32,000 nt of DNA, taken from positions 240,001-272,000 of the forward strand of contig NZ_FNLK01000012.1 of the NCBI RefSeq assembly GCF_900105015.1, read 5' to 3'. The position numbers were made by a program, and so were the translations under genes. This document shows, in pieces, positions 5,877-18,694 of this stretch; position 1 is the stretch's first letter; each line of letters begins with the position of its first letter. The DNA is from Schaalia meyeri. GTDB taxonomy: Bacteria; Actinomycetota; Actinomycetes; Actinomycetales; Actinomycetaceae. Below the pieces are notes generated by a model. That model worked only from the letters and a program-made list of their open reading frames with translations, did not search any database and was not told where the DNA came from.

Positions 5877-6863
5877 TCACCAGGCGCCTTTCGGGTTGCC
5901 GACGCGGCCCTCGTCCCGCTTCTCGCGCTGTTCCTTTCCGCGGTTCTCGTTTTGGTTTTGCAGGTCCTCCCTGCGCTTCTTCTGCTCCTTGGACTCGCCC
6001 TGGTAGGGATCTTCCTTCGGACTCGGGCTGGGGCTGGGCTGCTGGTTCTGCTGCCCCTGGTCCTGCTGCTGGCCTTGCTGCTGACTGTCGGAATCGCTGC
6101 GGTCCTCGGACTGTTCCTCGGCCTTTTGCTTCTTGTCCTCGACGCGGGACTTGTTCTTGTCGGCGGGATTGTCCGATTCCCCGCCGGACTGTTGCTTGTC
6201 GCCGGACTGGCCCTGGCCACCGGACTGCCCCTGATTCCCCGACTGGCCGGACTGGCCGCCATTGGACGTGCTCTGGCACGGGGAGATCAATTCCTCGGCT
6301 TCCTGGTAGGTGTTTGCAGCCTCGCTGTGGGATCCCGCAGCGTTCAGGATGTCTCCCTGTATTTCGATGCCGATGCCGAGGTTGACGCGTACGCGGCACT
6401 CGTAGGAGAAGGCCTCCAATCGCCCGGGCTTGACCTCGATGGCCTTGGGGACCAGTTCGAAGGCGGTACGCAGCTCGGCCACGCCCTCGTCCACGCGGTT
6501 TTGACGGGTCAGCGTTGTCCCGAGGTTGTAGTGCGCAACCCAGCGTTCAATGCCGATGGCGGTCCACTTCATCTGCCCTTCGTATCCCACCTGGGCGGCC
6601 TCATACTCCTGGGCTTTCCAGTGGCCCAGGGAGGAGCGCGACCAGAGGGTGACGCCGATCAGGTAGGCGGATGCGACCAGGGCGATCACCAGAAACGGGA
6701 TGGAGTAGAGCAGGGGCCGCAGGGCCCGGCCAGATCGTTTCACCTTCTGCTTCCCGGGCGAGGCCGGGTTCAGTTTCGCGCGGACCGACGGGTTGACGGG
6801 ATCTTCCTCGGGGGCCCCGAAAGGCAGGAGGTCCTCTTCGGGCAGGGAGTTGTCAGATGGCAT
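5877..6863 (-). CDS. BatC-like TM/TPR protein with Q/G/S-rich and K/E-rich low-complexity C-terminal tail
   Basis: The start overlaps the upstream VWA gene stop by 11 nt. One TM helix (LLYSIPFLVIALVASAYLIGV) is followed by a TPR-like helical region (HYNLGTTLTRQNRVDEGVAELRTAFEL). The tail runs SNGGQSGQSGNQGQSGGQGQSG...QQQGQQQDQGQQNQQPSPSPSP...KEQKKRREDLQNQNENRGKEQREKRDEG. Confidence 0.8.
   Translation of the reverse strand: MPSDNSLPEEDLLPFGAPEEDPVNPSVRAKLNPASPGKQKVKRSGRALRPLLYSIPFLVIALVASAYLIGVTLWSRSSLGHWKAQEYEAAQVGYEGQMKWTAIGIERWVAHYNLGTTLTRQNRVDEGVAELRTAFELVPKAIEVKPGRLEAFSYECRVRVNLGIGIEIQGDILNAAGSHSEAANTYQEAEELISPCQSTSNGGQSGQSGNQGQSGGQGQSGDKQQSGGESDNPADKNKSRVEDKKQKAEEQSEDRSDSDSQQQGQQQDQGQQNQQPSPSPSPKEDPYQGESKEQKKRREDLQNQNENRGKEQREKRDEGRVGNPKGAW
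6180..6262. repeat. in-frame 18-nt periodic repeat (CCGGACTG core) encoding a SGxQGQ-type low-complexity tract
   Basis: CCGGACTG recurs at 6184, 6202 and 6220, with a variant at 6238 and another copy at 6248. Confidence 0.6.
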
Positions 6864-7887
6864 GGGAGTTCCTCAGCTGTTGGGCTCGCAGCGCCAGGGT
6901 TGCGCCCTCCCACGCGAGGAGTCCTCCGAGGAGCAGAGCGAAGGGCCAGATGATGTAGCGATACGTGGATTGCTTGTTGCGCGACTCCGAGATGGTCGTG
7001 GCGCCCTCCAGGACGGAGCGCGCGTGGGACTCGATAGCCGATTTGTCGGGCGAGTGCACGTAGTCGATGCCGACACGGGAGGCGACCGTCTTCATGGCTG
7101 CCTCGTCAATCTTTGAGATCGCGATCGGGCTTCCGGGTTGGGAATAGTCGCGAATATACTCTGGCTCACCGCCGCTCTGGGCACCCTTGCCACCCAGGCG
7201 CAGCACCTTCATGCGGCCACCTTCCTGTGTCCCGTAGCCCAGGATGAGGCCGCCGTCCACGTGCTCCTTGACGGCATCCCAGTCGTTTTCCTCACCGGCA
7301 GGGGCCTTAGCCCAGTGGTCCTGGTTGGACGTCTCGCCGTCGGAGAAGACAAAGACGGCGCGGATGTTCTGGGGGTGACGCTTCTTATTCTTCGCGAGGA
7401 GCGCGGCGAGGTCCTTTGCCGGGCGGTTCACCGAGGATCCCTGCGAGGAGCTGGAGAGCTCCCGATCGAAGCTGGCCATGTACGCATCCACGGCGGAGGC
7501 GTCGGTCGTGAGCGGCATGTCCGTGTGCACCGCCGAGTCCCACGACATGATGGAAAAGCGCGAACCGGTCAGGATGCTCATGAGGATCGAGACGTCGTTG
7601 CGCACTCCGTCGATGCGGGGTTTTGTTCCGTCCCAGTCCTCGGCGCCCATGGAACCGGTACGGTCGATGACGAAGTAGACCTCGAGCGCTGAGGTCACCT
7701 CGCGGGCTTCGCCGGGGACGGAAGGACCCGCCCCCATGATGATGACGACCGCGACGATCAGGGCGCGTCGGACGATGTCCTTGATCCGTCTGCGCGCGGA
7801 GCGCCTGGCGGAAAGGAAGACGAATCCCGAGGCGATCAGGGCGATTAGTACCAGCAGGGCCAGGTTGACGACGGGTTGAAATACCAT
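6853..7887 (-). CDS. VWA domain membrane protein (BatB-like)
   Basis: ATG at 7885-7887 lies 1 nt after the upstream stop and is preceded by GGGAGG. The track start at 8067 lies inside the upstream gene. The protein has two N-terminal TM helices, the MIDAS motif DRTGSM, and a C-terminal TM helix YIIWPFALLLGGLLAW. Confidence 0.85.
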   Translation of the reverse strand: MVFQPVVNLALLVLIALIASGFVFLSARRSARRRIKDIVRRALIVAVVIIMGAGPSVPGEAREVTSALEVYFVIDRTGSMGAEDWDGTKPRIDGVRNDVSILMSILTGSRFSIMSWDSAVHTDMPLTTDASAVDAYMASFDRELSSSSQGSSVNRPAKDLAALLAKNKKRHPQNIRAVFVFSDGETSNQDHWAKAPAGEENDWDAVKEHVDGGLILGYGTQEGGRMKVLRLGGKGAQSGGEPEYIRDYSQPGSPIAISKIDEAAMKTVASRVGIDYVHSPDKSAIESHARSVLEGATTISESRNKQSTYRYIIWPFALLLGGLLAWEGATLALRAQQLRNSHAI

Positions 7888-7888
7888 C

Positions 7889-8908
7889 TCAGAACCTCCC
7901 GTAGGCGAGCAGCCCGAGCAGGGAAAGGACTCCGACGATGGTCCATCCCAGGGCGGCGCCGGGACGGTCGGTTTCCAGCATCTTTGCGGCAGAATCGAGG
8001 TCTTCCTTCTGCTCGGATTCGATCTGCTTGACGACTTCGTCGACGGCCGACGGGGACGAGGCATCATAGAACTCGCCGCCGGTCGACCTGACCTGGTCCC
8101 TCAGCTCGTAGGCCTCGCTGGTCATGGCGTACGTCGATCCCGGGTAGAGGGCCGACACGGTCACTTTCTGGCTCTTCGCGAACTCGATGGCCTCGGACAG
8201 GTTGTATATGCCCTGACCGTACACCTCGTTGTCGGTCGCCAAAAGGATCGTGCGGGACCGCTGCTTGTCGGTGTGGTCGAAGCCCAGGACGCACGAAGCC
8301 AGGCCGTCACCGACCAGCGACGCCTTCGGATCGTCGTCGTCCGAAAGCGTTGGACGCAGGTACTTCTCCAGATTCGCTGTCACGGAGATCCGCCCGCCGA
8401 TGGTAGAGAATCCGCCGTCGATGGTTTCGGCCATCTCCGTGAGGACGTCGTTAGCCAACTCGTAGTCATCGGTCAGCGGAAACATGGTCATCGAATAGGC
8501 GTTCCACAGCTGCAAAGAGATTCGTTCGCCTTCGAAGTGGGAGATGATCTGCTTGAAGGCGTCGCCGATCTTCGAGTCGTAGGGAAGCATCGACCCCGAG
8601 GCGTCCAGGCAGATCACGATATCTCGGCTGGAGGACTTATCGTGCTTGACGTAGCGATCCACGGGTGCTCCCGCCGACACCGAGGTCGCGATGACCGCGA
8701 TCAGGAAGCAGACGACGGCCATCGCCAGGGAGGCGCGCGTGCGCCTCACGAGCGTCTGGTACTTGGGCAGGCCTCGCAGGTAGCCGGTGTTGGCCACCCA
8801 GCCTTTTCCTCCCGAGCGTTGACCAGCGCGGCGCGCGAGCAGCCAGCCGGCGCAGGTTGCGGCAAGGACGACGCCGAGGACGACAAAGATGAGCCAGGTA
8901 AACCTCAT
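7889..8908 (-). CDS. VWA domain membrane protein (BatA-like)
   Basis: The start overlaps the upstream stop as ATGA (8905-8908). The protein has two N-terminal TM helices, the MIDAS motif DASGSM, and a C-terminal TM helix ALGWTIVGVLSLLGLLAY. Confidence 0.85.
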   Translation of the reverse strand: MRFTWLIFVVLGVVLAATCAGWLLARRAGQRSGGKGWVANTGYLRGLPKYQTLVRRTRASLAMAVVCFLIAVIATSVSAGAPVDRYVKHDKSSSRDIVICLDASGSMLPYDSKIGDAFKQIISHFEGERISLQLWNAYSMTMFPLTDDYELANDVLTEMAETIDGGFSTIGGRISVTANLEKYLRPTLSDDDDPKASLVGDGLASCVLGFDHTDKQRSRTILLATDNEVYGQGIYNLSEAIEFAKSQKVTVSALYPGSTYAMTSEAYELRDQVRSTGGEFYDASSPSAVDEVVKQIESEQKEDLDSAAKMLETDRPGAALGWTIVGVLSLLGLLAYGRF

Positions 8909-9465
8909 GCGTCCACCGCCTGCGAGGCGAGGAACAGGATGTCGGTGGCGCGGGCGCCGCCCGGTATCGGTGACGCGGCAAGTCCTCTGCCGTGGGGTGG
9001 GCCATCCGGGGGGGTGGGAATCGCGTCGCGCCCGGCAGGGTCCCCTCCCTCATCGTCGCCGACGAAGCTGGGCGTCTCGCAGGCCTCGAGCACATTTGCC
9101 AGTTGGGGCCACGTGGGCACCAATGCGCGGATTTCAGAGACCGTGGCGACCTCAAGGTCACGACCCGAGCGTTCGGTGCCGAGGGCGCGCATGAGGCCCG
9201 CGACCGCCAGGTGCGTGCCGCGCTCGTCGAGTTCTCCGCTGGCGCGCCGCTGGGCAATCTGATCGACGAACTCGTGGTAGCGTGCGCGACGGGCCGCGGA
9301 GATTGTCTGCAGGTTAGCGACGCTGCCCTCACGCGAGTGCCACCAGGCCCACAGGCTATAGGCCACCCAGCCGACCACCAGGAGCAGGAGCGCCGCACCG
9401 GCGACCCACATCCAGTGCGGGTAGATGATTGGGTCTTGGAGGCTGTCAATGAGGTTGCCGGACAT
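8905..9465 (-). CDS. small single-pass membrane protein (DUF4381-like position in Bat-type operons)
   Basis: 186-aa ORF with an N-terminal TM helix (HWMWVAGAALLLLVVGWVAYSLWAWW) followed by a helical soluble part. It is translationally coupled to the following VWA gene. Confidence 0.7.
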   Translation of the reverse strand: MSGNLIDSLQDPIIYPHWMWVAGAALLLLVVGWVAYSLWAWWHSREGSVANLQTISAARRARYHEFVDQIAQRRASGELDERGTHLAVAGLMRALGTERSGRDLEVATVSEIRALVPTWPQLANVLEACETPSFVGDDEGGDPAGRDAIPTPPDGPPHGRGLAASPIPGGARATDILFLASQAVDA

Positions 9466-9704
9466 CGCCGTACCTTTCGCCCGGGCGGGTGAGCGGGGCG
9501 GTGTTGGCGTGAACGGCGCGGTGTGCTGCCATCGCTCGTGGTGCCATTCCGACTCTCTTCCCAGTGTTCATCGGAGCGTCGGACCGACCACCCATTCCCG
9601 TGTCAGAGCCGACGCCGCGTTCACCTGATTGTGCCACGACGGGAGCGATAGTGCTAATGCCCGGTGCGGCGCCTGGCCGCAGGTGTCACCCCGGGAGACC
9701 GCGT

Positions 9705-10691
9705 TTATTCGACAGGCGTTTGAGCAATTTGTTCGATGTTTGCGCGCTTCTTCGGGCGCGCAGGATACCCGGAGCGCCACACGTAGAGCCCAATCAGTGA
9801 GACTCCCCCCAACAGGCCGACGGCCCACCAGGGGAACCCGGGGATATCGGGAACATCGCCTGCCGCGTCGAGGTCCTTCTGGGGGGTGGGATAGACGCGC
9901 TCGCCGGTGATCAGGATGCGGTGCGTGTTGATGCCCAGGGGCGTGCACGTCACCAGCGTAGCCAGATCCCGCCCCGGGTCGGCGCGCAGCGCCTCGGTTT
10001 CCTCGGGTTCGACGACCTTTTTATCAAAGACCCTGTAGGTGAGGACCTCGCCGAACACCTCGAAGGTGAAGGTGTCGCCCACCGAAACCTTGTCGAGGTC
10101 CGTAAACATGCGCGCTTCGGCCAGCCCGCTGTGCCCGGTGACGACCGCGCGTTGCCCCTGCCCGCCGACGGGCAACGAGGTGCCCTCCAGGTGCCCGAGC
10201 CCCCTGAGGAGGGTGTCGTCGGCGGTGCCGTGGTAGATGGGCAGGTCGATGTCGGCGGTGGGGACCTTCAGCCTGCCCATGAGTCCCGTATCGTCGGCTC
10301 TCAGGATGGAGTTATAGTCCAGGCTTTCGTCACCGGAGGTGCCGTCGCCGGTGGGCACGTTCGTGTTCGCCTTCAGTACCGCCCCGTAGTTCAACGCGTC
10401 GTTGTACCTGTGGGCGAGCGCCAGCTGTTCATCGGCCGACGGGTCGGCGCGGCCGACCGAGTCCTTGTACTGGGCGATGACCTGCGACTGGTTGTATTGG
10501 ACAATCCAGGCGGAGATCGACGGGTACAGGCAGAGCAGCATGGCCGCCAGCGCCAGCAGGGACGGGATCAGCGAGGGTGCCGAGAATGTCCACCGTCGCT
10601 GCTCCTGGGCAGGCGGGCGCGATCTGGCGGGCGTTATCTGTGCACCTGGCGCGTCGGGCGCGGTGCTTCCGGTTTCGTGCGTGTGGGTCAT
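9705..10691 (-). CDS. srtC: class C (pilus-polymerising) sortase
   Basis: N-terminal TM helix, His motif VVTGHSG, TLVTC catalytic cysteine motif, Arg motif ILITGER, and the extra C-terminal TM helix (WWAVGLLGGVSLIGLYVW) typical of class C sortases. Confidence 0.9.
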   Translation of the reverse strand: MTHTHETGSTAPDAPGAQITPARSRPPAQEQRRWTFSAPSLIPSLLALAAMLLCLYPSISAWIVQYNQSQVIAQYKDSVGRADPSADEQLALAHRYNDALNYGAVLKANTNVPTGDGTSGDESLDYNSILRADDTGLMGRLKVPTADIDLPIYHGTADDTLLRGLGHLEGTSLPVGGQGQRAVVTGHSGLAEARMFTDLDKVSVGDTFTFEVFGEVLTYRVFDKKVVEPEETEALRADPGRDLATLVTCTPLGINTHRILITGERVYPTPQKDLDAAGDVPDIPGFPWWAVGLLGGVSLIGLYVWRSGYPARPKKRANIEQIAQTPVE

Positions 10692-10703
10692 AGTGCGGGC
10701 GCG

Positions 10704-10731
10704 CTGGGGGACCCGGGTCGGGGTCCCCCAG
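10704..10731 (-). promoter_or_regulatory. 9-bp GC hairpin in the 45-nt adhesin-sortase intergenic gap
   Basis: CTGGGGGAC (10704-10712) pairs with GTCCCCCAG (10723-10731), read directly. Confidence 0.5.
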
Positions 10732-10736
10732 TCGCG

Positions 10737-13598
10737 TCATGCCTTTCGGTTCTTGCGGCGCTTGATGGCCGCGCCTACGCCAGCGGCACCCAGGCCGGCG
10801 ACGATACCGCCGATGATGTATGCATCAGCACCGAATCCGCCGGTGAGCGGGAGGCTTGGAACATTCTGCTTCTCATTCGTGATCGGCTCGAAAGCAAAGT
10901 CCAGTGCCTTTGCATCGATTGTGAATTCATGCGGGGTCGGATCCAGGCGGTACCCGGCGGGAGCCTTCTTCTCTTTGAGAGTGTAGGTCTTCTCGCTCCA
11001 CGGCAGCCCCTTCACGGTGAAGGAACCGGCGGCGGGGTCCGTGTCGTAGTAGGTGCCGTCCGGGGCCTTCGGACACTGGGCGGCCGAGTCAGCCTGGCAG
11101 TCCGCGATGGTCACCGCGCCCGGCAGCGCGCCGCCGCTGATCGTCCATTCCGAGCCTGCGAGAGGCGAGGTGCCGTCGGAGGCATCCACCTTCTTCCAGG
11201 TCACCGACCCGGTGAGCCTCGTATTGATGATGGCACCGTTGTCAGTAACCTTGCCATCAATTGCCGCGAGTCTAGCCTCAAGGGCAGAACCGTTGAGCTG
11301 TGGGAAGGTAAAGGTGTCGGTCAACACCGCATACCCGTCGGGGACGGCGGACTCCTTGATAGAGTAGGTCCCCCACTTGAGACCCGTGAGTTTGAACTTA
11401 CCCGGCGCCGGATCCTGATCCTTATAGGCGCCCGTCGGGCAGATACCCGAGGAGCAGTCAGTCACGGTCGTGCCCGTCGGAACGTCGGGACCCGTCAGGG
11501 TCCAAGTGGTGCCTGCCAGAAGAGTGGTCCCGTCGGATTCAACCTTATCCCAGGTGAGGGTGCCCGGTTTCGTCGTGTTAACAATTGTGCACGTCACACG
11601 ATCAGCGTTCTTGATGGTAACCCGCGAGCCTGACAGAGTTGACGAGTAGGAGGTTCCCTGAGCGTTGACGGTTCCGGCGGTCTGGCCACAGGTCCATTCG
11701 CCAGCCGCGTACCCACCCGCCTGAGCATTCACCGATTCCTCGGACAGCGCGTACGTGCCCTTGAGCACTCGCTGGATGTTCGTGTCGCCTGCACCCGTGA
11801 TGGTCTTGAAGGGAGCATTCACCGAGGAATTCTTACCTGTGAGGGTCCATTCCGATGCGGCGAGCGCGGGGACCTCCGTCGAGGCGTAAAGCCCGTCAAC
11901 ATTCTTGACAATCTGAAGGGTGGGAATGCGGACTGAAATCTTGTAGTCCTCGACCTCACCGGTCGTCGTGTTACCGGTAGCCTTCTGATTGTCACCATTA
12001 GAGTCGTTGGTGATACGCAGACGCATGAAGGTATCACCGACACTTCCCGCCTCTCCGGTCACCGAACGGACAACGTCGTCGGGAACCGTCCAGCTGAGCT
12101 TCACGCTGGACCCCAGGCAGGGTACCTCATCGGACTTCTCACCCAAGTCGAAGGAGCCGTTGTGGTTCCAGTCGATCCATCCGGCAACCTTCCCCGGTCC
12201 CTTACAGGCAACCGTCTGTTGATGGGTCGCTCCCGCCTGAGTAGTGATTCCCTCGGCAATGGTCTGCACGCTGAGACCATCCTCGTCTGCGGTTCCGTTC
12301 TGATCATCACCAAGGGCGTCGTCCGAGTGCTGCTGGTACCCCTCGGCGTCGATCTCGGTGCCAAGAATCGTTTGGGCAGAATGCATCGTCGCCTTGCCGA
12401 CACTAAAGGCATCAACGGTGTGCGTCACCTGACCGCCGCTCCACGTGGGCTGGAAGAGCGCGGATGCTTTGCCATAGGACTCTGGGGCGTCGCCAAAGTC
12501 GGTGGCGATGACCAGGCCCAGTGCGACCGCCGAGTAGCCTCCACCCTGAATGGTGATCGTCGCCTTGGTCGCACCTTCCATGAACATAACGGCATCCGGA
12601 CCACCCAGGCCGTTAGGGCGACTGTACTTTCCACCATTCTGGTAGACACACTCCTTTCCGGTAGGCATCAGCCGGACCGTCGAGGAGTCAACGAATTTTG
12701 CTTCACTAGTCACGCCATTGCAATTAGCAGAACGCAGGGTATCGAGGACGCGCCACTTGACATTCTGCTGCGAGGTGCTTGCCTGCACCCACTCATTCTG
12801 GAAGTCATAGTCGTCACCTGGCTTCCGATTGCTAGAGGCCTCGGCGTCCGCGAAGACGAGGCCGGAAAGGGGGACAGCGAGGGTCGTACCGTCATCGCCG
12901 CGAAGCTCTGCGGAGCAGTTGAGGTCAACGCTCACTCGGGCGTTCACACCCGTCGGACGGTTCCCCGGCTGCCATGGAGCGTTCGGATTCTCGTAGGAAT
13001 TGCTCCCGATGTTCGCGTAGCCATTGGCCAGGCCGACGACCATCTTGTTCTTGTTGACGTAGTCCTTGGGGTACGTAAGCCCTTCGTGCCACTCGGCGGA
13101 ACCGTCGCTCCATGAGCCGGGGCCGCCGACGTTGTAGAGGTTGTCCAGGGCGTCGCCTGCCCAAGTTCCTGGAATGGTCGCGACTAGGGGGCCATTGGAT
13201 TGTTCATCCGTGCTTCCAGTGCCGTGCCCCAAGTGTTGAAGATTCGACAGGGTGCAGGTCGTCACCAGAACGCCAGCGTCGCCCATGTCCCGCGAATTCG
13301 TGAACGCTTTCACCTCGCCCTTATCGAGAATCGGCGCGTAGGGCTGCGTCTGGTTTGCGAAGTACTTGTCATAGTCCGCCCATTGGAGCCACTGGATGGA
13401 TTCTTTGAAGCGCCCCGAGCCTCCCGTGGCGAAGGTCGCGGGCAGGGAACCACTGGGGACCCTCTCGGCAGCCGCCTGGGTCTGCTCCACCACGTGGGGC
13501 AGGATCGGCGCGGTGCCGATGGCCGCGCAGACCGCGAACGCGACCGCGAAGCGTGCGAGCCGCCTGCTGCGGGACTGTAGACGGGCGTGTTGGGTCAC
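10737..13598 (-). CDS. LPLTG-anchored pilus-associated adhesin (putative tip/minor pilin) with GEVED-type and SpaA-type domains
   Basis: GTG start follows GGAG. Domain order is as follows:
- signal peptide;
- about 320-aa N-terminal domain that I do not recognise;
- DFGDAPESYG ... WIDWNHNGSFD ... TGEVEDYKI (GEVED-type domain);
- three prealbumin/SpaA-like domains, two of them with Cys-x-Cys loops (TDCSSGICP, ADCQADSAAQCP) and ...APAGY/VPDGY strands;
- C-terminal LPLTG, hydrophobic helix and KRRKNRKA. Confidence 0.9.
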   Translation of the reverse strand: MTQHARLQSRSRRLARFAVAFAVCAAIGTAPILPHVVEQTQAAAERVPSGSLPATFATGGSGRFKESIQWLQWADYDKYFANQTQPYAPILDKGEVKAFTNSRDMGDAGVLVTTCTLSNLQHLGHGTGSTDEQSNGPLVATIPGTWAGDALDNLYNVGGPGSWSDGSAEWHEGLTYPKDYVNKNKMVVGLANGYANIGSNSYENPNAPWQPGNRPTGVNARVSVDLNCSAELRGDDGTTLAVPLSGLVFADAEASSNRKPGDDYDFQNEWVQASTSQQNVKWRVLDTLRSANCNGVTSEAKFVDSSTVRLMPTGKECVYQNGGKYSRPNGLGGPDAVMFMEGATKATITIQGGGYSAVALGLVIATDFGDAPESYGKASALFQPTWSGGQVTHTVDAFSVGKATMHSAQTILGTEIDAEGYQQHSDDALGDDQNGTADEDGLSVQTIAEGITTQAGATHQQTVACKGPGKVAGWIDWNHNGSFDLGEKSDEVPCLGSSVKLSWTVPDDVVRSVTGEAGSVGDTFMRLRITNDSNGDNQKATGNTTTGEVEDYKISVRIPTLQIVKNVDGLYASTEVPALAASEWTLTGKNSSVNAPFKTITGAGDTNIQRVLKGTYALSEESVNAQAGGYAAGEWTCGQTAGTVNAQGTSYSSTLSGSRVTIKNADRVTCTIVNTTKPGTLTWDKVESDGTTLLAGTTWTLTGPDVPTGTTVTDCSSGICPTGAYKDQDPAPGKFKLTGLKWGTYSIKESAVPDGYAVLTDTFTFPQLNGSALEARLAAIDGKVTDNGAIINTRLTGSVTWKKVDASDGTSPLAGSEWTISGGALPGAVTIADCQADSAAQCPKAPDGTYYDTDPAAGSFTVKGLPWSEKTYTLKEKKAPAGYRLDPTPHEFTIDAKALDFAFEPITNEKQNVPSLPLTGGFGADAYIIGGIVAGLGAAGVGAAIKRRKNRKA

Positions 13599-13664
13599 TT
13601 CAACTCCAATGACTAGGTTTTTAAAAAATCGTTCTCAAGCAAGTATTGTCTGGGATGTACTGCG

Positions 13665-13708
13665 GGGTCGGCACGGCTGGAGAACCGGTCTCCCGGCCGT
13701 GCCGACCC
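13665..13708 (-). promoter_or_regulatory. long GC stem-loop between the major pilin and adhesin genes (candidate partial terminator/attenuator)
   Basis: GGGTCGGCACGGC (13665-13677) pairs perfectly with GCCGTGCCGACCC (13696-13708). There is also an inner 5-bp stem GGAGA/TCTCC. The structure lies 47 nt after the pilin stop. Confidence 0.6.
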
Positions 13709-13754
13709 GCACGGGGCCTCGGTGCCAGGGCGACACCCTGACAGCCCCGAATTG

Positions 13755-15413
13755 TCAGGCTTCCCTGCTGCGCTTACGCGAGCGGATAACCAGGGTGGAA
13801 CCAACGGCGATGAGTCCCAGGGAGACGCCGCCGATGGTCATCAGCAGCTGGCCGTTGGCACCCGTGAGGGGCAGCTGAGGCACGGGCTGCTTGGTGTTGC
13901 TGATCTCGGCGTTGTACGAACCCACGTTCTGGGTACCCTTGGCAACCTCGATGCCGGTCGTGGCGTTCTTGGGCAGGACGTAGCCCGCGGGGGCCTCGAT
14001 CTCCTCGACCACGTAGCAGCGCTTGAGCGCACCCTTCGAGGCAGGGCCGACCGAGCCGACGGAGTCGCCGACGTAGAGGCCGTCGATCTTCACCAGGCCG
14101 TTCTCGTCAGAGACGAACTCGGTCTTGTCGTTGACCTTGATCGGGTCGCCAGTCTTGGTCGCAGCCTTGCAGTCGGCCGCGTAGGGGTCGGTGGCGTTGT
14201 AGACGTTGAACTTCGCGCCCTTGATGCCGGTCTTGGCATTGCCGGAATTGCCGTCGAACTTCAGCAGCTGAACGCTGCCCCAATCCGTGGAGACCTCGGG
14301 GGAGGTCGGCGGGTTTTCGGGCTCGAACGGAGGCAGCGAGGGCGGGTCGTTGGGGGGAACGGCGCCGTAGGTCGTGTCCTGGATCAGGTCGGCCGTGTTC
14401 TTGATGGTACCGTCACCAACGGCGCTGACCTTGCCGCTGAAGATCGCCTCAAGCTTCTTGCCGGCATTATCCTGCAGCTTCTGCAGACCGGCGCGCTTGA
14501 AGGAGACGACAACCAGGCCGTTCGTATTGGACTGCTCGTAGTCGGTGCCCTCGGTCAGGGTCTCGTCGCCCAGGGTGATCTTGTCGACCTTGCCGTCGGT
14601 GAGGCGCGGATCCAGCTGGTCACGCAGGTAGAAGTACTTGAACTGCAGGTCGGCGTCAAGATACGGAACGGCCACAGGGACAGGGCCGTCGTCACCAAGG
14701 TTCGGGATGGTCGTGGAGACGGGGAAGGTCACGCGAGAACCCAGGCCGAAGCCGTTCGCACTCTGATCGGAGATGGTCTTGTCGATCTCGATCTTCTGGT
14801 TCTTCGGGTAGGCGTGCACGTCGTAGAGCCACTTGCCGTCGCCATCATTGGTGGTGTTCGGGAACGGGATCGTCACGACGAAGGGCTTGGCCTTCTCGAC
14901 GATGTTGGCAGGAGCCTTGGTCTCACAGACCAGGTACGCGGCGACCGAGAGCTGCTCCAGCTTGGTCACGCCACCACCGGCGGTGGTACCCTCGGCTGCT
15001 GCGTTCGTCTCGACGGCGGGCGCACCGGCTCCGAGCGTCGGGGCAGCAGGATCCGCACAGGCGCTGGCGGGAACATTGTCGACAAGCTCTGCCAGCTTGT
15101 CCCAGTCGGCGGGCTTGGACAGGTCCAGGCCGGAGACCTTGTACGCCTTGAAGGTCACGCCATCAACGCCGTCACCGCCAGCATCGGCAGAACCGTCTAC
15201 CTTGCCCATCTGACCCGAATCGTTCTTCAGGTGCTTGTGGATGGTGATCGAGCCCTTGGCGTTTTGATCGATGGTGCCGTAGGAGGGATCCTTGGCAAAA
15301 GCAGCCGCGCTGGTGGCAACAACTCCCGCAACTCCGATACTCAGGGCACCCGCGGCGGCGAGCATTCGCCGCCCCAGGGGCGAGTGTTTGCTGTTCACTC
15401 GTCTTCCTCTCAT
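13755..15413 (-). CDS. LPXTG major (shaft) pilin, SpaH/FimA/FimP-type
   Basis: Signal peptide, pilin motif WLYDVHAYPKN (14799-14831), E-box YVVEEIEAPAGY, two Cys pairs (C119/C163 and C415/C466), and the sorting signal LPLTG followed by a TM helix and RSRKRSREA. The start could instead be the GTG 15 nt downstream, which is preceded by GAGGAAG. Confidence 0.92.
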   Translation of the reverse strand: MRGRRVNSKHSPLGRRMLAAAGALSIGVAGVVATSAAAFAKDPSYGTIDQNAKGSITIHKHLKNDSGQMGKVDGSADAGGDGVDGVTFKAYKVSGLDLSKPADWDKLAELVDNVPASACADPAAPTLGAGAPAVETNAAAEGTTAGGGVTKLEQLSVAAYLVCETKAPANIVEKAKPFVVTIPFPNTTNDGDGKWLYDVHAYPKNQKIEIDKTISDQSANGFGLGSRVTFPVSTTIPNLGDDGPVPVAVPYLDADLQFKYFYLRDQLDPRLTDGKVDKITLGDETLTEGTDYEQSNTNGLVVVSFKRAGLQKLQDNAGKKLEAIFSGKVSAVGDGTIKNTADLIQDTTYGAVPPNDPPSLPPFEPENPPTSPEVSTDWGSVQLLKFDGNSGNAKTGIKGAKFNVYNATDPYAADCKAATKTGDPIKVNDKTEFVSDENGLVKIDGLYVGDSVGSVGPASKGALKRCYVVEEIEAPAGYVLPKNATTGIEVAKGTQNVGSYNAEISNTKQPVPQLPLTGANGQLLMTIGGVSLGLIAVGSTLVIRSRKRSREA

Positions 15414-15613
15414 AACTTCCGCACTGTGTGTGACGGGGTGGATGGTTCAGCAATAAGCATAGGAGCGACTTCGGCCAGATGCTACATTTACCGGAAAAAT
15501 ATGAAATACCTTTCACGTTTTGACGTAAAATACCGAAAATCCTATGAGCCAGCTCTCATTTCATTACCGTTCGGTAGAGAAATTTGCGGGATTGTCACAC
15601 ACCAAACGCGTCT
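15414..15613 (-). promoter_or_regulatory. AT-rich upstream/promoter region of the pilus locus
   Basis: 200-nt non-coding gap. The core at 15484-15590 is far more AT-rich than the flanks. It contains four A-tract repeats (GAAAAATA, GAAATAC, TAAAATAC, GAAAATC at about 15494, 15503, 15526 and 15535) and the motif ACGTTTTGACGT. Confidence 0.6.
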
Positions 15614-16507
15614 CTACGCGCGGTTTCCCGACCGCTCCAACGCGCGCATGAGAGCGCGAGGAACCTCATCCGAGGAAGCAACGCTCACCTGGATGACGCC
15701 GCGCGTGTCAAGCATCTGCGAGACCGCCATGCGACGCTGCTCCACGACACCCCGGGCCTCCTTGGCCAGCTGCTCATCCCTGCGCAAGAAATCAGGCAGC
15801 GGCCCCTCGTTGACGTCAATAACCGTCATGTCTGGATCAACATCCGCCGGGTTCATATCGGCCACCGATATCTGCACGACCTGATGGCGCACGGTCAGCG
15901 ACTTGATGATGTCGTCCGCCTCCTTCGTCGGAAACGGCTGAGTCTGATCGCTGACGATCACGACAAGCGAGCGCCTCCTGGTCGTCGTGAGCGCCCGACG
16001 CAAAAGGCGCAGCACGTCCGAACGCGGAGAGGCCAGGGTAATATCCTCCGCGATGCGACGCATGATCGTCTCCGCGTGGCCATTGCCCGTCCGGGCCGGC
16101 ATGAAGCGCACCCTGCGCGAATCCCCGGCGACCAGGCCGATCTGGTCCCCCCTGGCCACCGACAACCACGCGATCGCCTCGCACGCCGCCAGCGCCACCT
16201 CCTCCTTCGACTCCCCCGACGGGGCCAGAGCGCCCATCTCGCGCCCCGTATCGACTACCAGGATCACCTGAACGTTCGCCGTCGCCTCGTGACGCTTGAT
16301 CGTGGGAGTCCCCGTCCGGGCGGTGGCCGCCCAGTCGATCTCGCGCACGTCATCGCCCGGCTGATAGGGGGCCAAGTCCATGAACTCCCAGCCCCGCCCC
16401 CACCTCAGCGCCGAATGTTGCCCGTCCATGACGGACAGGAGCTTGCGCATAACGGGAAGCTGGATGCGCGTCGACAACGCGTGGATCTCACGCGACCTCA
16501 CAGGCAC
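15614..16507 (-). CDS. DUF58 domain protein (MoxR-operon partner, degenerate VWA-like)
   Basis: GTG start follows AAGGAGG. The signature ...FMDLAPYQPGDDVREIDWAATARTGTPTIKRHEA...VILVVDTG... is typical of DUF58. Confidence 0.9.
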   Translation of the reverse strand: MPVRSREIHALSTRIQLPVMRKLLSVMDGQHSALRWGRGWEFMDLAPYQPGDDVREIDWAATARTGTPTIKRHEATANVQVILVVDTGREMGALAPSGESKEEVALAACEAIAWLSVARGDQIGLVAGDSRRVRFMPARTGNGHAETIMRRIAEDITLASPRSDVLRLLRRALTTTRRRSLVVIVSDQTQPFPTKEADDIIKSLTVRHQVVQISVADMNPADVDPDMTVIDVNEGPLPDFLRRDEQLAKEARGVVEQRRMAVSQMLDTRGVIQVSVASSDEVPRALMRALERSGNRA

Positions 16508-16546
16508 GATAGGCCTCCTTAAACTGGCCGGGAAAAGCGGCAGCCG

Positions 16547-17536
16547 TCACGGCACCGGAACCGCGTTGAACACCGCGTCGATCAGCCCCTCAACAGAAAC
16601 GTTATCCGCCAGCGCGTCGAAGGTACGGATGATGCGGTGGCGCAGAATCGCGTAACGCAGCCTCTTGATATCGTCGGGCACCACGTAGTTGCGCGCCTCC
16701 ATGAGCGCCAGAGCCTGAGCGATCTGCATGAGCGCAATGCCGCCTCGCGGAGAGGCACCCACGCGCACGTGCTTGGTCCACCCAGGCAGCGGATTCGGGC
16801 CCGCTCCCCTGGTGGTGTTGATGATGTCAACGATGTACGCCTTGAGGGTGCTGTGCACGTACACGCGGCGCGTCAAATCCTGCAGCAACAGAACATCGTT
16901 GACGGAGACCGGCTCCGAGGCGACGGGGACCTCCATCGCACCCGAATCGATACGCTCCAGGACCTCTAGCTCGTCAACCGGCGCGGGGTAGGTGATGACC
17001 TCCTTGAGCAAGAATCGGTCCATCTGCGCCTCAGGCAAAACATAGGTGCCCTCTTCCTCGATGGGGTTCTGCGTCGCCATCACCATGAACGGCCTGGGCA
17101 GGCGGTGGTTGACGCCGCCGATCGTGGTCTGCCCCTCCTGCATCGCCTCCAGCATCGCCGACTGGGTCTTCGCACTCGATCGGTTAATCTCATCGAGCAG
17201 GACCAGGTTCGCGTGGACCGGTCCCAGCTGGGTGACCATCTCGCCCGAGGCCTGGTTCCAGATCTGCGAACCCACGATGTCGTTGGGCATCAGATCCGGC
17301 GTGCACTGGATACGGTGGAACGTACCGGAGACGGCGGAGGCCAGGGTCTGAGCGGCGGTGGTTTTGGCCAGGCCCGGCACCGACTCGACCAAGACGTGTC
17401 CGTCCGCCAGCAGGCACGCCGTGAGCGCCGTACGCAGATCCTCCTGCCCGACAACTTTCGCCTGATAAATCACGGTAATGCGGTTCAGAATGTCCTTGGC
17501 CTGGGCAAGTTCCGCATCGGTCAGGTAAACGGCCAC
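16547..17536 (-). CDS. MoxR-family AAA+ ATPase
   Basis: GTG start follows AGGAG. Walker A is VPGLAKTT and Walker B is LLDEINR. The rest reads like MoxR/RavA-class ATPases (GPVHANLVLLDEINRSSAKTQSAMLEAMQE). Confidence 0.93.
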   Translation of the reverse strand: MAVYLTDAELAQAKDILNRITVIYQAKVVGQEDLRTALTACLLADGHVLVESVPGLAKTTAAQTLASAVSGTFHRIQCTPDLMPNDIVGSQIWNQASGEMVTQLGPVHANLVLLDEINRSSAKTQSAMLEAMQEGQTTIGGVNHRLPRPFMVMATQNPIEEEGTYVLPEAQMDRFLLKEVITYPAPVDELEVLERIDSGAMEVPVASEPVSVNDVLLLQDLTRRVYVHSTLKAYIVDIINTTRGAGPNPLPGWTKHVRVGASPRGGIALMQIAQALALMEARNYVVPDDIKRLRYAILRHRIIRTFDALADNVSVEGLIDAVFNAVPVP

Positions 17537-17603
17537 AAAGTCTCCTAGTGTGCACGGGAAAAGGTGCTGCTGTGGTTAGTCTAGTGCGCGGGGCGCGTTT
17601 TGG

Positions 17604-17617
17604 TGGACATGTGTCCA
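17604..17617. promoter_or_regulatory. 14-bp perfect palindrome TGGACAtgTGTCCA upstream of the MoxR gene
   Basis: Read directly. It lies about 70-80 nt upstream of the MoxR start, in the 117-nt gap after the preceding gene. Confidence 0.35.
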
Positions 17618-17653
17618 GACGCACCCCGCTCCGGGCCTGCCCGCGTCACCGGG

Positions 17654-18397
17654 TCAGCCCGCAGCACCCTGAACGACGCGCACGACCTCCGCGAAGTCGA
17701 CGCGCCGCCTGCGCTCGTCCTCGGGGGCAGCAAGGCACGTGTACACGCCCGACTCGACCGTCACCCCGCGCGCCACGCCCCAGGCCCACAGGGTTTCGAG
17801 TTGCAACTGCGCCGTGACGATCGCCTTACGTGAATAGTCGTCGAAATACCCAACTCCGATCAACGGCACATCGCCATAACCGGGCATGAGCAGGTGGATA
17901 TTGACGCTACCGGCGATATAGTCATCCCCGTAGTCACTCGGCTCACTGAGGCAAATAAAGAGATCCGAATGTGATCTCGGCCATGCATAGTCCGACCGAT
18001 TCGTCCCCTCGACCAGGTGAAAACCCATTCGGTCCACGACGAGCCGGTCGTTGCCGCGTATCTTCACGTCGTAGACGTAGTAGCCGATCACGCCAAAGGG
18101 AACCACGCACATGACGACGAGCGCGACGATGTCGGAGGACGAGCGGATAGCTCCGGACGCGCTATCCGGGTTCGTGAGAAAAATCAGCCCCACGACGAAC
18201 GGACACAGCAAAGAGAGACAGATCCCGCCGACCCACATGACCTTCGACCATGTCGAGCGGGAAGCGGATCGTTTGAACACGAGCGGCTCCTGCGCCATCC
18301 ACACCTGATTCGGCGCCAAAAATGGCTGAAATGCCGTGGGGCCGACAGTGCTCGCGCCCCCAGCATTTGGGACGTTGCCTGGACTATTCGGAGTCAC
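17654..18397 (-). CDS. hypothetical membrane protein (Pro-rich N-terminus, two TM helices, about 130-aa cytoplasmic domain)
   Basis: 247-aa ORF with TM helices VMWVGGICLSLLCPFVVGLIFL and IVALVVMCVVPFGVIGYYVY. I recognise no motif. The start is uncertain: GTG 18397 has no RBS, and ATG 18298 is an alternative. Confidence 0.6.
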   Translation of the reverse strand: MTPNSPGNVPNAGGASTVGPTAFQPFLAPNQVWMAQEPLVFKRSASRSTWSKVMWVGGICLSLLCPFVVGLIFLTNPDSASGAIRSSSDIVALVVMCVVPFGVIGYYVYDVKIRGNDRLVVDRMGFHLVEGTNRSDYAWPRSHSDLFICLSEPSDYGDDYIAGSVNIHLLMPGYGDVPLIGVGYFDDYSRKAIVTAQLQLETLWAWGVARGVTVESGVYTCLAAPEDERRRRVDFAEVVRVVQGAAG

Positions 18398-18630
18398 CGG
18401 GGGAGCAGTAAACCACGCATACGGATTCTACGGGTTCGTGCCAGGGTATCGTCCGCTCATCTCGTCTCTTTCCTCGCCTCTGCACACATTCTACTCACGC
18501 CGTTCAACGCCCTCAGTGCCTCGTGGCCGCCGCGGGGCCCACTTGTGGCACCCGGCCGGGTGGAGGCTGCGGGAGCTATTGCTGGACCTGCCCAGTCTGG
18601 GACTGTGGAAGCCGACTTCCAGCGACACAC

Positions 18631-18662
18631 GGGAGGCCGGGCCCGATCGGGCCCGGCCTCCC
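18631..18662 (-). terminator. 32-nt perfect palindrome downstream of pckG (I-shaped terminator)
   Basis: GGGAGGCCGGGCCCGATCGGGCCCGGCCTCCC equals its own reverse complement. It lies 33 nt after the pckG stop. Confidence 0.7.
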
Positions 18663-18694
18663 GCACTCGGTGTGCGCGAGATGCAGCGAGGCGC

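Follow-up and report, generated by a model that had tools for sequence, protein, structure and literature searches.

The window analysed here is a 32,000-nucleotide stretch of Schaalia meyeri DNA (contig NZ_FNLK01000012.1, positions 240,001 to 272,000), in which the genes of a sortase-assembled pilus lie inside an operon of the Bat type. An earlier sequence-only reading had proposed nine open reading frames for this locus. All nine are present at the positions given, all on the minus strand, and profile searches upheld the domain assignments; the order is MoxR and DUF58, then a FimA-type pilin, a CshA_NR2/GEVED LPLTG adhesin and a class C sortase, then a DUF4381-like membrane protein, two BatA/BatB-like VWA proteins and a membrane protein with a weak TPR region.

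16547-17536, minus strand: MoxR-family AAA+ ATPase, with which the split operon begins (Pfam AAA_3, E 2.9e-58; AAA_lid_2, 1.2e-17)
15614-16507, minus strand: DUF58 protein, 297 aa; its 3' end forms the left junction of the islet (Pfam DUF58, E 2.2e-34)
13755-15398, minus strand: major pilin, FimA/SpaH type, 547 aa from a GTG start (SpaH/EbpB family NF033902, E 2.6e-128)
10737-13598, minus strand: LPLTG-anchored tip-type adhesin, 953 aa (CshA_NR2, 9.8e-46; GEVED, 1.7e-14; SpaA, 6.2e-26)
9705-10691, minus strand: class C (pilus-polymerising) sortase (NF033745, E 1.5e-73; TLVTC motif)
8905-9465, minus strand: small single-pass membrane (TM) protein, 186 aa, DUF4381-like, heading the distal half (TM segment at residues 13-42)
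7889-8908, minus strand: BatA-like membrane VWA protein, VWA1 (VWA_2, 1.4e-05; NF047508 BatA, 1.2e-10, under its cut-off)
6853-7887, minus strand: BatB-like membrane VWA protein, VWA2 (VWA_2, 5e-09; NF047506 BatB, 3.9e-10, under its cut-off)
5877-6863, minus strand: single-pass membrane protein (TM segment at residues 47-76) in the BatC position, with a tail rich in Q/G/S and a region weakly resembling TPR

The pilin carries the YPKN pilin motif (WLYDVHAYPKN) and an LPLTG; among solved structures it is best matched by 3QDH ('Fimbrial structural subunit', E 1.4e-58). Its more likely start is the GTG at 15398, which follows the SD sequence GAGAGGAAG and is also the call of the NCBI record. The adhesin has its LPLTG at residue 916, and for the sortase the best solved relative is the class C sortase 8T28 (E 1.2e-98). 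Among the distal genes, the two VWA/MIDAS assignments hold; the small TM protein reaches DUF4381, and the last gene TPR, only below threshold (DUF4381 in 9/9 family members, best E 7.7e-5; TPR at E ~1e-3, in S. meyeri and S. odontolytica alike). The S. meyeri TM protein is of the long, georgiae-type form. VWA1 has its MIDAS, DASGSM, at residue 102 and hydrophobic segments at 1-26, 56-84 and 316-337; its top PDB profile matches are BatB 3IBS and 4JDU, with marginal E values of 0.03-0.05. In VWA2 the MIDAS, DRTGSM, is at residue 75, and the NF047506 match spans profile positions 76-321 of 324. The coordinates of the four distal genes bear out the coupling geometry claimed for them, with an overlap of 4 nt between TM and VWA1, a gap of 1 nt between VWA1 and VWA2, and an overlap of 11 nt between VWA2 and the last gene.

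We then compared the locus with 27 species representatives of the Schaalia/Pauljensenia clade, within which NJ trees were made from few genes. In 22 of the 27 the operon is uninterrupted, lies in the same PEPCK...purD context and has its DUF58 and TM genes overlapping, stop on start (ATGTCCGGTGA); two more metagenome scaffolds also have a contiguous, overlapping DUF58-TM pair. The pilus block lies at exactly this junction in 5/27 representatives, and also in S. meyeri and one S. odontolytica genome. Together with the relics at the junction, the intact operon of the 22 sister species supports the insertion proposed from the sequence. In the intact state the DUF58 and TM genes share 11 nt, and in the filled state both genes are complete. 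DUF58 measures 297 aa in filled and intact loci alike, with a C-terminus reading ..ALERSGNRA* in S. meyeri as against ..ALERGAHVR* in intact operons. The ..ER..VR* end occurs twice in filled loci, at the end of DUF58 and at the end of a leader ORF described below. Because DUF58 has the same length in both states and a relic of its 3' end precedes the TM gene, the filled junction appears to derive from the intact one. The duplication is short and diverged; a hand count upstream of the ATG gave about 14/25 matches. Part of it is SD sequence, possibly convergent. All filled loci have in common the left leader, the right-end box and the leader ORF, and to judge from these sequences the islet is of single origin in all of them.

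The pilus block had been said to bring its own AT-rich upstream region and, from spot counts, to be less GC-rich. The first statement is correct, the region being 45% GC against 65.6% for the window. The second is true of the adhesin gene, which has the lowest GC3 of the block (0.735), but not of the pilin (0.834) and sortase (0.842) genes, which are like the flanks (0.80-0.87). The compositional argument for insertion is thus weak, because the adhesin gene alone deviates and because synonymous-site divergence points to an islet that is old at this site.

15399-15613, minus strand: AT-rich pilus control region with a putative promoter, TAGCAT (15484-15479), 17 nt, TATGCT (15461-15456)
13665-13708, minus strand: strong stem-loop between the pilin and adhesin genes, without a U tract (dG -47.9 kcal/mol, z -3.72)

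Also conserved in the control region are a GGTAA(A/T) box and the 5' UTR, which includes the pilin SD sequence. When seven species were aligned, TATnnT was conserved and the leader CGTCACACAC(A/T)GTGCGGAAGT..GAGAGGAAGAC invariant. The pilus promoter in this region is putative; a generic sigma-70 scan made no call for it, nor for the box between the sortase and TM genes. The hairpin between the pilin and adhesin genes is conserved: S. odontolytica and P. hongkongensis have equivalents (z -7.75 and -4.96, respectively). It may serve in attenuation or transcript stabilisation.

The 239-nt spacer between the sortase and TM genes has features of its own, the last of which runs into the TM gene.

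9614-9656, minus strand: invariant 42-43 nt box TAGCACTATCGCnCCnGnCGTGGCACAATCAGGTGAACGCGGC, a putative promoter with -35 TAGCAC, a 17-nt spacer and extended -10 TGGCACAAT
9572-9619, minus strand: conserved leader stem-loop directly after the box (RNAalifold, 5 sequences: stem columns 10-59, two compensatory pairs)
9446-9547, minus strand: leader ORF of 33 codons, MAPRAMAAHRAVHANTAPLTRPGERYGDVRQPH*, after the SD sequence GGGAAGAG and ending 20 nt into the TM gene

The box occurs once in the window and has no match in Rfam; 8/8 filled loci have it, and the intact ones lack it. All 52/52 metagenome occurrences are at the sortase-TM junction, so that 60/60 overall are found at this junction only. 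It is nearly invariant across four species whose 4-fold sites are saturated, and no other non-coding element of the locus is as well conserved. The evidence for conservation of the stem-loop is weak, coming from few independent lineages. Every one of the 60 loci with the box, which comprise 27 distinct spacers, also has the leader ORF. It is 28, 30 or 33 codons long and stops either at TM+20 or at TM+11, the nucleotide at which DUF58 stops when the operon is intact. In 27/27 distinct spacers its length shifts in multiples of three only and its stop keeps its place, whereas the untranslated stretch between box and ATG, 68 to 73 nt long, varies by any number of nucleotides. We read the leader ORF as a relic of the 3' end of DUF58, and it may well be translated; the box is a candidate promoter for the distal four genes. 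Since a leader ORF ending on the TM start follows the box, the distal genes probably have expression signals of their own. To our mind the rewired regulation proposed earlier is plausible, although read-through from the pilus promoter, the route then suggested, is the less likely one given the invariant box and the conserved leader ORF, both of which are new observations.

It is nevertheless conceivable, if rather unlikely, that the TM-VWA-VWA-TPR genes are mainly read from the pilus promoter and that the box is no promoter but serves, say, regulator binding, processing or stability. The spacer has no significant hairpin or terminator (z +0.70), as had been noticed, and since no terminator was found after the sortase gene, read-through may contribute to distal expression or dominate it. 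Moreover, the box matches a canonical -10 poorly (CACAAT, without the usual first T), escaped the generic scan, and is followed by a conserved stem-loop. However, its spacing and extended -10 (TAGCAC-N17-TGGCACAAT) suit a promoter, its degree of conservation is unequalled among non-coding elements here, the SD sequence and leader ORF follow at a set spacing, and the pilin gene is followed by a strong hairpin, which should already lower read-through further downstream.

The ancestry of the S. meyeri locus is mosaic, as seen in per-gene, sliding and 4-fold-site identity.

8750-18690 (approximate), no strand: georgiae/hongkongensis-like recombinant tract in S. meyeri, roughly 10 kb

The tract takes in hyp208, MoxR, DUF58, the islet and TM. 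The S. meyeri MoxR is 94-95% identical in amino acids to those of S. georgiae and P. hongkongensis, versus 81-84% to those of the odontolytica complex, and 4-fold-site identity between S. meyeri and S. georgiae is 0.64-0.71 from MoxR to TM (adhesin 0.50) whereas neighbouring genes that lack strong codon bias give 0.37-0.47. By these identities S. meyeri demonstrably received its islet copy on a georgiae-like tract, and further combinations of flank types occur among metagenome contigs. The pilins are 85-90% identical across strains whose flanks share 99-100% identity, and the central ~2.3 kb of the adhesin gene has just 50-70% identity to the S. georgiae or S. odontolytica allele. Between S. 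odontolytica and S. georgiae, 4-fold-site identity is saturated in the sortase (0.47) and likewise in the flanks (0.41-0.45), and is 0.67 in the pilin and 0.70 in the adhesin; by this measure the islet is old at this site. As had been remarked, integrases and transposases are missing, here within +/-10 kb in the precomputed Pfam matches of the identical NCBI locus, and a search for terminal repeats of the islet found none.

Alternatively, the filled order could be the original one in the clade, the 22 contiguous operons being precise deletions or replacements by intact alleles; no insertion would then have taken place on the lineage of S. meyeri. The earliest-branching pair, S. georgiae and P. 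hongkongensis, is filled, as is S. meyeri, and the sortase is as diverged at synonymous sites as the flanks; gains and losses within the clade are for these reasons not countable. The two short ER..VR-coding copies could also allow precise excision. Yet the duplicated junction is the signature of an insertion into the DUF58/TM overlap, the S. meyeri copy came on a georgiae-like tract, and contiguous MoxR-DUF58-VWA clusters are the usual state in spirochaetes and Bacteroides (PMC5700661). We hold an ancestral split to be improbable; if true, it would change only when the events happened and how many there were; what the block is would stay the same.

We therefore propose, as the probable explanation, an accessory FimA/SrtC2-type pilus islet carried by some oral Schaalia species. 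The major pilin, tip adhesin and class C sortase genes would have been inserted once, long ago, exactly at the overlap of the DUF58 stop and TM start in a conserved Bat-like operon (MoxR-DUF58-DUF4381-VWA-VWA-TPR-like) of the Schaalia/Pauljensenia clade. Having no mobility genes, the islet would persist as a presence/absence polymorphism, and homologous recombination within the conserved flanks of the operon would carry it from one species to another or exchange one copy for another. Its genes would be driven from their own AT-rich promoter region, with the hairpin after the pilin gene setting how much pilin is made relative to adhesin and sortase. The promoter-like box at the islet's right end would serve the distal genes left stranded, and the leader ORF, with its duplicated DUF58 3'-end relic and its stop in the region of the TM start codon, would mimic the termination-reinitiation coupling that DUF58 gives where the operon is uninterrupted. 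The pilus and the MoxR/VWA module would then be neighbours through an accident of insertion, not partners.

A partnership, in which the MoxR/DUF58 and VWA-MIDAS proteins help pilin folding, secretion or anchoring and selection holds the linkage, had been offered as an alternative and is very improbable: it could account for the same site being kept across lineages with saturated synonymous sites and in many oral metagenome contigs, and for the absence of a terminator on either side of the block in S. meyeri, but the 22 sister species have the operon without pilus genes, a canonical terminator separates DUF58 from pilin in S. georgiae and P. hongkongensis (z -5.6), the islet has promoter-like regions of its own on both sides, and flank recombination explains persistence at one site. 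Neither idea was thought to have been described, and our literature search likewise found no paper combining MoxR, sortase and pilus. MoxR proteins are viewed as chaperones for VWA/MIDAS partners (PMC3557215), and in the PFNA cluster of bifidobacteria a surface FN3 adhesin gene adjoins MoxR and DUF58 (PMC8430577), both of which would suit a partnership. The segments and MIDAS of VWA1 are laid out much as in BB0173 (PMC5700661). Against a partnership, MoxR/VWA genes are absent near the homologous pilus clusters of six other Actinomycetaceae loci. In three Actinomyces lineages, homologous adhesin-pilin-sortase clusters lie between tuf and rpsJ; others adjoin PAP2, a two-component system and topA, or peptidase S9, LuxS and Fur. 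Because the Actinomyces homologues sit elsewhere and never near MoxR, the S. meyeri block is best taken as an accessory pilus islet and not as a functional MoxR-pilus unit.

The conserved operon MoxR-DUF58-TM-VWA1-VWA2-last gene, where TM is a small membrane protein, has an identifiable empty site at the point where Schaalia meyeri carries pilus genes. The sequence-only reading had offered, as one of two alternatives, that a pilus islet was inserted into this operon, and asked whether DUF58 and TM are adjacent where the pilus genes are absent. A clade scan with one genome per species returned 27 loci, and nine window proteins were mapped onto each. The six genes are contiguous in 22 of the 27 species representatives, with DUF58 and TM adjoining, and the insertion is supported by the empty site (..GAAAGGGGAGCACATGTCCGGTGA..) in these 22 sister species; the block is thus present or absent among close relatives, as an islet is. 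In the other five (P. hongkongensis, S. georgiae and three uncultured Actinomyces MAGs), pilin (adhesin, sortase) lies between DUF58 and TM; S. meyeri and S. odontolytica CP133472 are filled as well. The operon of the window is split by 6.1 kb and its order is not contiguous. The DUF58 protein is identically encoded, in the same gene order, in the complete genomes CP012072.1 and CP066065.1, and two Pauljensenia-like metagenome scaffolds have the intact operon in the same chromosomal context (PEPCK upstream, purD downstream). Relatives named in the scans belong to Schaalia, Pauljensenia and Actinomyces. The contig scan, made with very specific peptide patterns, returned the close clade only (77-90% identity), so polarity is read within this clade. 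Three loci labelled Sanguibacter keddieii 250_SKED (L028), Xylanimonas cellulosilytica 352_XCEL (L029) and 'uncultured Xylanimonas' (L027) share synteny and 78-79% identity with the Schaalia/Pauljensenia operon; these taxonomic labels are probably wrong. The genes of the window, in order of transcription, gave the following matches.

Minus strand: MoxR ATPase; AAA_3 2.9e-58 (195.9 bits) plus AAA lid, over the Pfam cut-off
Minus strand: DUF58 protein; 2.2e-34 (119 bits), over the Pfam cut-off
13755-15398, minus strand: major pilin; SpaH/EbpB family NF033902 2.6e-128, GramPos_pilinD1 4.5e-27
Minus strand: adhesin, 953 aa; CshA_NR2, GEVED and SpaA domains, LPLTG at residue 916
9705-10691, minus strand: class C sortase; NF033745 247 bits against a cut-off of 160, TLVTC at residue 245
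Minus strand: small membrane protein (TM); weak match to DUF4381, 18.7 bits against a cut-off of 27.2
5877-6863, minus strand: last gene, a membrane protein; TPR matches sub-threshold only (E about 1e-3)

All nine minus-strand ORFs described from the sequence are present at their coordinates with every motif quoted for them (DASGSM, DRTGSM, YPKN, LPLTG twice, TLVTC), and the coordinates give the coupling geometry of the distal genes, from TM onward, as a 4-nt overlap, a 1-nt gap and an 11-nt overlap. The start of the pilin needs a correction, being probably the GTG at 15398 and not the ATG at 15413. It is a major pilin by its N-terminal D1 domain, the motif WLYDVHAYPKN at residues 190-200 and LPLTG at residue 509, and among solved structures 3QDH, a "Fimbrial structural subunit" that we take to be FimA, is its best relative (E 1.4e-58). 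The 953-aa adhesin is the second LPXTG protein, as a tip or minor pilin would be, and may occupy the pilus tip. The sortase, a dedicated enzyme encoded in the cluster, has as its best solved relative the class C sortase 8T28 (E 1.2e-98). By sequence, the pilus block is a FimA/SrtC2-type sortase-pilus locus.

On the side of the host operon, profile searches place a MoxR-proper AAA+ ATPase before the DUF58 protein, as in Bat-like operons. The VWA proteins have the MIDAS and TM layout and a weak but specific similarity to the BatA and BatB models; with NCBIfam scores of 40.9 bits for BatA (cut-off 380) and 39.3 bits for BatB (cut-off 350), they fit in architecture and fall short, by sequence, of membership in these curated Leptospira models. 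A VWA1 profile search of the PDB gave marginal BatB/BatA matches only, the best being BatB 3IBS and 4JDU at E 0.03-0.05, and PDB searches with the single adhesin, VWA1 and VWA2 sequences gave no match. All nine TM family members (9/9) match DUF4381 and no other family, with a best E of 7.7e-5, below threshold. The host operon is Bat-like in architecture; in profile searches its VWA proteins stay far under the BatA/BatB cut-offs, and TPR and DUF4381 are sub-threshold. The Q/G/S-rich C-terminal tail of the last gene product is highly variable, the protein ranging from 313 to 396 aa across species; in one Pauljensenia-like scaffold (L008 13414-14604) it scores as collagen-like repeats (PF01391, E 3.8e-5).

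The pilus block had also been described as less GC-rich than its surroundings. Only the adhesin gene (GC3 0.735) and the upstream spacer are lower than the flanks; the pilin (GC3 0.834) and the sortase (0.842) are indistinguishable from them (0.80-0.87) and do not have the deviant base composition of a genomic islet. Because GC3 in pilin and sortase equals that of the flanks, a recent foreign origin of the whole block, as argued from composition, was rejected. There are no mobility genes or IS elements within +/-10 kb, in line with the earlier remark that integrase and transposase are absent. Neither direct nor inverted terminal repeats flank the islet in a repeat search; the one repetition is a short, diverged duplication at the junction. 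Wherever the operon is intact, the stop of DUF58 lies over the TM start (...GAAAGGGGAGCAC ATG TCC GG TGA), with 11 nt coding for the last residues of the one and the first of the other. In filled loci the two genes are nevertheless complete, DUF58 having 297 aa in filled and intact loci alike, with a C-terminus ..ALERS(G/S)xR(A/R/K) in the former and ..ALERG(A/S)HVR in the latter; the junction was therefore duplicated or rebuilt. The filled loci retain, 5' of the TM ATG, a right-hand copy GCGAA(A/G)GG...ATGTCCGG, and contain an open frame ending ..GER..VR* at the same nucleotide as the DUF58 stop in intact operons. By hand count, some 14 of the 25 nt that precede the TM ATG match. This right-hand copy is suggestive of a footprint of insertion into the overlapping junction, and no more than suggestive because the stretch is short and partly Shine-Dalgarno sequence.

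The history of the locus was followed by a mosaic analysis of per-gene identities, sliding windows and identity at 4-fold degenerate sites. By the neighbouring genes in which codon bias is not strong (PfkB, hyp209, NUDIX, a Septum_form paralogue, VWA1, VWA2 and the last gene), S. meyeri groups with the odontolytica complex, and in these genes outside the recombinant tract the meyeri-georgiae 4-fold identity is 0.37-0.47. In the small ORF upstream of MoxR, MoxR, DUF58, pilin, sortase and TM, S. meyeri is closest to S. georgiae/P. hongkongensis. The 4-fold identity to S. georgiae is 0.71 in MoxR, 0.68 in DUF58, 0.69 in pilin, 0.64 in sortase and 0.65 in TM, and the MoxR protein is 94-95% identical to those of S. 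georgiae/P. hongkongensis. One breakpoint of the tract falls close to the PEPCK 3' end, the other some 150-250 nt inside VWA1. Since the meyeri-odontolytica values of MoxR and DUF58 drop to the georgiae-odontolytica level, the donor was georgiae-like and the recipient the meyeri lineage. Between S. odontolytica and S. georgiae, 4-fold sites are saturated in the flanks and the sortase (0.41-0.47) and not in the pilin (0.67) or the adhesin (0.70); in S. odontolytica these last two genes were therefore exchanged later, and the sortase is as old as the flanks. Metagenome contigs show further flank-type combinations. Phylogenetic incongruence is thus seen in the discordant flank trees and identities, in the 4-fold-site contrasts and in the mixed metagenome flank types. 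Neighbour-joining trees put the filled taxa in three lineages; as the earliest-branching pair is filled, gains and losses are not countable within the clade. From these comparisons of sequence, the block is an accessory sortase-pilus islet exchanged by flanking homology.

Several parts of the locus vary in their own way. The central ~2.3 kb of the adhesin gene (window 10900-13400) is 50-70% identical to the alleles of S. georgiae and S. odontolytica, which share 75-89% identity; the centre of the S. meyeri adhesin is a replaced, divergent allele. Between strains or contigs with 99-100% identical flanks (L001, L003, L004 and L005 against L002), the protein sequence of the major pilin diverges by 10-15% and its length varies too, the called lengths being 523, 534 and 547 aa, which suggests allelic/antigenic variation, or recombination confined to the pilin gene. 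Between PEPCK and MoxR, within the recombinant tract, lies a small ORF (window 17654-18397; 208 aa in the NCBI record) without a Pfam match, found among the fetched species only in S. meyeri and S. georgiae, at 88% identity. The MoxR upstream region (window 17537-17653) is of two unrelated types, with a -10 TA(G/A)ACT in meyeri/georgiae/hongkongensis and TACACT in the odontolytica complex, consistent with a recombinant tract carrying its own MoxR promoter.

The islet also has control regions of its own. The AT-rich region noted earlier upstream of the pilus block is the 45% GC DUF58-pilin spacer, in which a TATnnT about 75 nt before the start and a GGTAA(A/T) box are conserved in seven species and the leader with its SD is invariant. 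In P. hongkongensis and S. georgiae (L010 10905-10950 and the same region of L011), a canonical intrinsic terminator directly follows DUF58, with a 16-bp GC stem, then UUUUCC (z -5.6). This terminator and the ~45 extra bases found after DUF58 in these two species are absent in S. meyeri and S. odontolytica, so that lineages differ in how far the islet is isolated transcriptionally. In S. meyeri a strong hairpin, with no U tract, lies between the pilin and adhesin genes (z -3.7). It recurs, even in double form, in S. odontolytica (z -7.75) and P. hongkongensis (z -4.96), and would plausibly give more pilin than adhesin and sortase.

The 239-nt spacer between sortase and TM holds a conserved 42-nt box and, downstream of it, the start of a short leader ORF that ends within the beginning of TM.

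9614-9656, minus strand: box, a putative promoter, single in the window
9446-9547, minus strand: leader ORF

Alignment of four species gives an invariant block TAGCACTATCGCnCCnGnCGTGGCACAATCAGGTGAACGCGGC; synonymous sites between these species are saturated. Its layout is that of a putative promoter, with a -35 TAGCAC, a 17-nt spacer and an extended -10 TGGCACAAT. The box is present in all filled loci (8/8) and in none of the other loci compared, and its 19-nt core has 52 exact matches in the metagenome collection, every one of them at a sortase-TM junction, or at a contig end just before TM. Rfam had no match for the box and, at a permissive E-value, gave a chance miRNA match only, on the pilin-adhesin hairpin. 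A generic sigma-70 and terminator scan returned nothing in either the DUF58-pilin or the sortase-TM spacer. A sigma-54 reading of TGGCAC within the box was rejected, as the -12 element is absent and Actinobacteria are not known to have sigma-54. Downstream of the box come a stem-loop with two compensatory pairs and an SD-like GGGAAGAG, then the ATG of the leader ORF. Across 60 loci (27 distinct spacers) this ORF has 28, 30 or 33 codons and stops always at TM+11 or TM+20, and the untranslated distance from box to ATG is 68-73 nt. This distance varies freely and the ORF length by codons; any indel is therefore tolerated before the ATG, and only in-frame ones within the ORF. The N-terminal part of the leader ORF (..PRAMAAH..) might also come from DUF58 (..PRALMRA..), the stretch compared being a very short one.

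In the mechanism that we propose, the distal half of the operon would be driven by its own promoter, the box, and the leader ORF would restore the termination-reinitiation coupling formerly given by DUF58. We hold such a repair of the operon after insertion, by a promoter and a leader ORF on a duplicated stub of the upstream gene with translational coupling kept, as a tentative reading, with chances slightly below even. Alternatively, the distal genes may be transcribed by read-through from the pilus promoter, the form of rewiring first suggested. Scanning and folding agree with the earlier observation that the spacer has no strong terminator, and no significant hairpin follows the sortase gene (z +0.70). 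However, the spacer has its own promoter-like box and leader ORF, and regulation was probably altered in this other way.

Far less well placed is a role of MoxR/DUF58 and the VWA-MIDAS proteins in pilus biogenesis (metal loading, folding or membrane staging of pilins or sortase, for example), the islet being kept for co-expression: we regard it as very improbable, and the repair of the operon is the likelier reading. The 22 pilus-free operons and the other contexts of outside clusters leave the functional link, as first raised, unsupported. In the protein searches the best 120 matches were listed; close oral relatives dominate them, and one search reached other genera. Among the matches listed, the closest sortase relatives outside the clade belong to homologous adhesin-pilin-sortase clusters in other surroundings: between tuf and rpsJ, as described below; beside PAP2, a two-component system and topA, in A. 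ruminicola and a second genome; and, at another cluster, beside peptidase S9, LuxS and Fur. No MoxR or VWA genes were found near those homologous clusters, which, with the 22 operons free of pilus genes, argues against coupling. A literature search returned no paper uniting MoxR, sortase and pilus, and the locus gives no reason to seek pilus functions in MoxR/VWA systems. In three Actinomyces lineages, clusters of 2 to 6 genes with homologous pilin, CshA_NR2-adhesin and class C sortase genes stand between tuf and rpsJ, in the gap that parts the str and S10 ribosomal operons (L039 8189-11239, L094 1827-11098 and L095 1717-15450; the sources label the sortases Actinomyces sp. oral taxon 170, A. 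bowdenii and A. trachealis). The tuf-rpsJ gap has the appearance of a second conserved site at which pilus cassettes land.

Both S. odontolytica, the model host of Saccharibacteria, and S. meyeri colonise the mouth in abundance and occasionally cause disease. A FimA-type pilus that is an optional islet, swapped between species with variable pilin and adhesin alleles, matters for adhesion, tropism and typing at the level of strains. The locus is also a clean natural case of an operon cut at an overlapping stop/start junction yet kept, and offers testable features in the 42-nt box and the leader ORF, which would mimic the lost end of the upstream gene.

The pilus block resembles the type 2 fimbrial locus of Actinomyces oris/naeslundii (fimB-fimA-srtC2) in its pilin motif, LPXTG, large LPXTG adhesin and class C sortase. 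The order is pilin-adhesin-sortase here and adhesin-pilin-sortase in A. ruminicola and a JGI metagenome contig, and the cluster lies inside the MoxR operon instead of between tuf and rpsJ as in the three Actinomyces lineages. The FimA sequenced from A. odontolyticus PK984 has 535 aa and was linked to haemagglutination that depends on sialic acid (PMC1473193). The host operon shares with the Bacteroides Bat and spirochaete bat-MoxR clusters (B. burgdorferi bb0170-bb0176, Leptospira) a MoxR AAA_3 protein, DUF58, a small TM protein, two membrane MIDAS VWAs and a last protein that is weakly TPR-like, and VWA1 has the BB0173 layout of three TMs with the MIDAS near residue 100. It differs in BatA/BatB scores far under the curated cut-offs, in having no BatD/BatE, in a Gram-positive host and so no periplasm, and in being split by 6.1 kb.

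The streptococcal islets (rlrA/PI-1 and PI-2; GBS PI-1 and PI-2a/2b) are accessory sortase-pilus cassettes at a fixed site between conserved genes, spread by recombination. Presence or absence at a fixed site, with allelic variation of pilin and adhesin, is common to these islets and to the one described here. The pneumococcal rlrA islet is variably distributed (PMC2270847). In contrast to them, the Schaalia islet has no regulator such as rlrA and no flanking IS elements, and its site is inside an operon, at an overlapping stop/start, with putative compensating signals for the downstream host genes. The nearest thematic precedent for actinobacterial MoxR/DUF58 next to a large surface adhesin-like gene is the Bifidobacterium PFNA cluster, pkb2-fn3-MoxR-duf58-tgm, where the neighbour of MoxR and DUF58 encodes an FN3 surface protein (PMC8430577). 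Neither sortase nor pilin is listed in the cluster as described, and a transglutaminase-like membrane protein stands as partner instead of VWA proteins (PMC8430577). All species with the PFNA cluster reportedly keep its order (PMC8430577), whereas the adhesin block is optional in the operon studied here.
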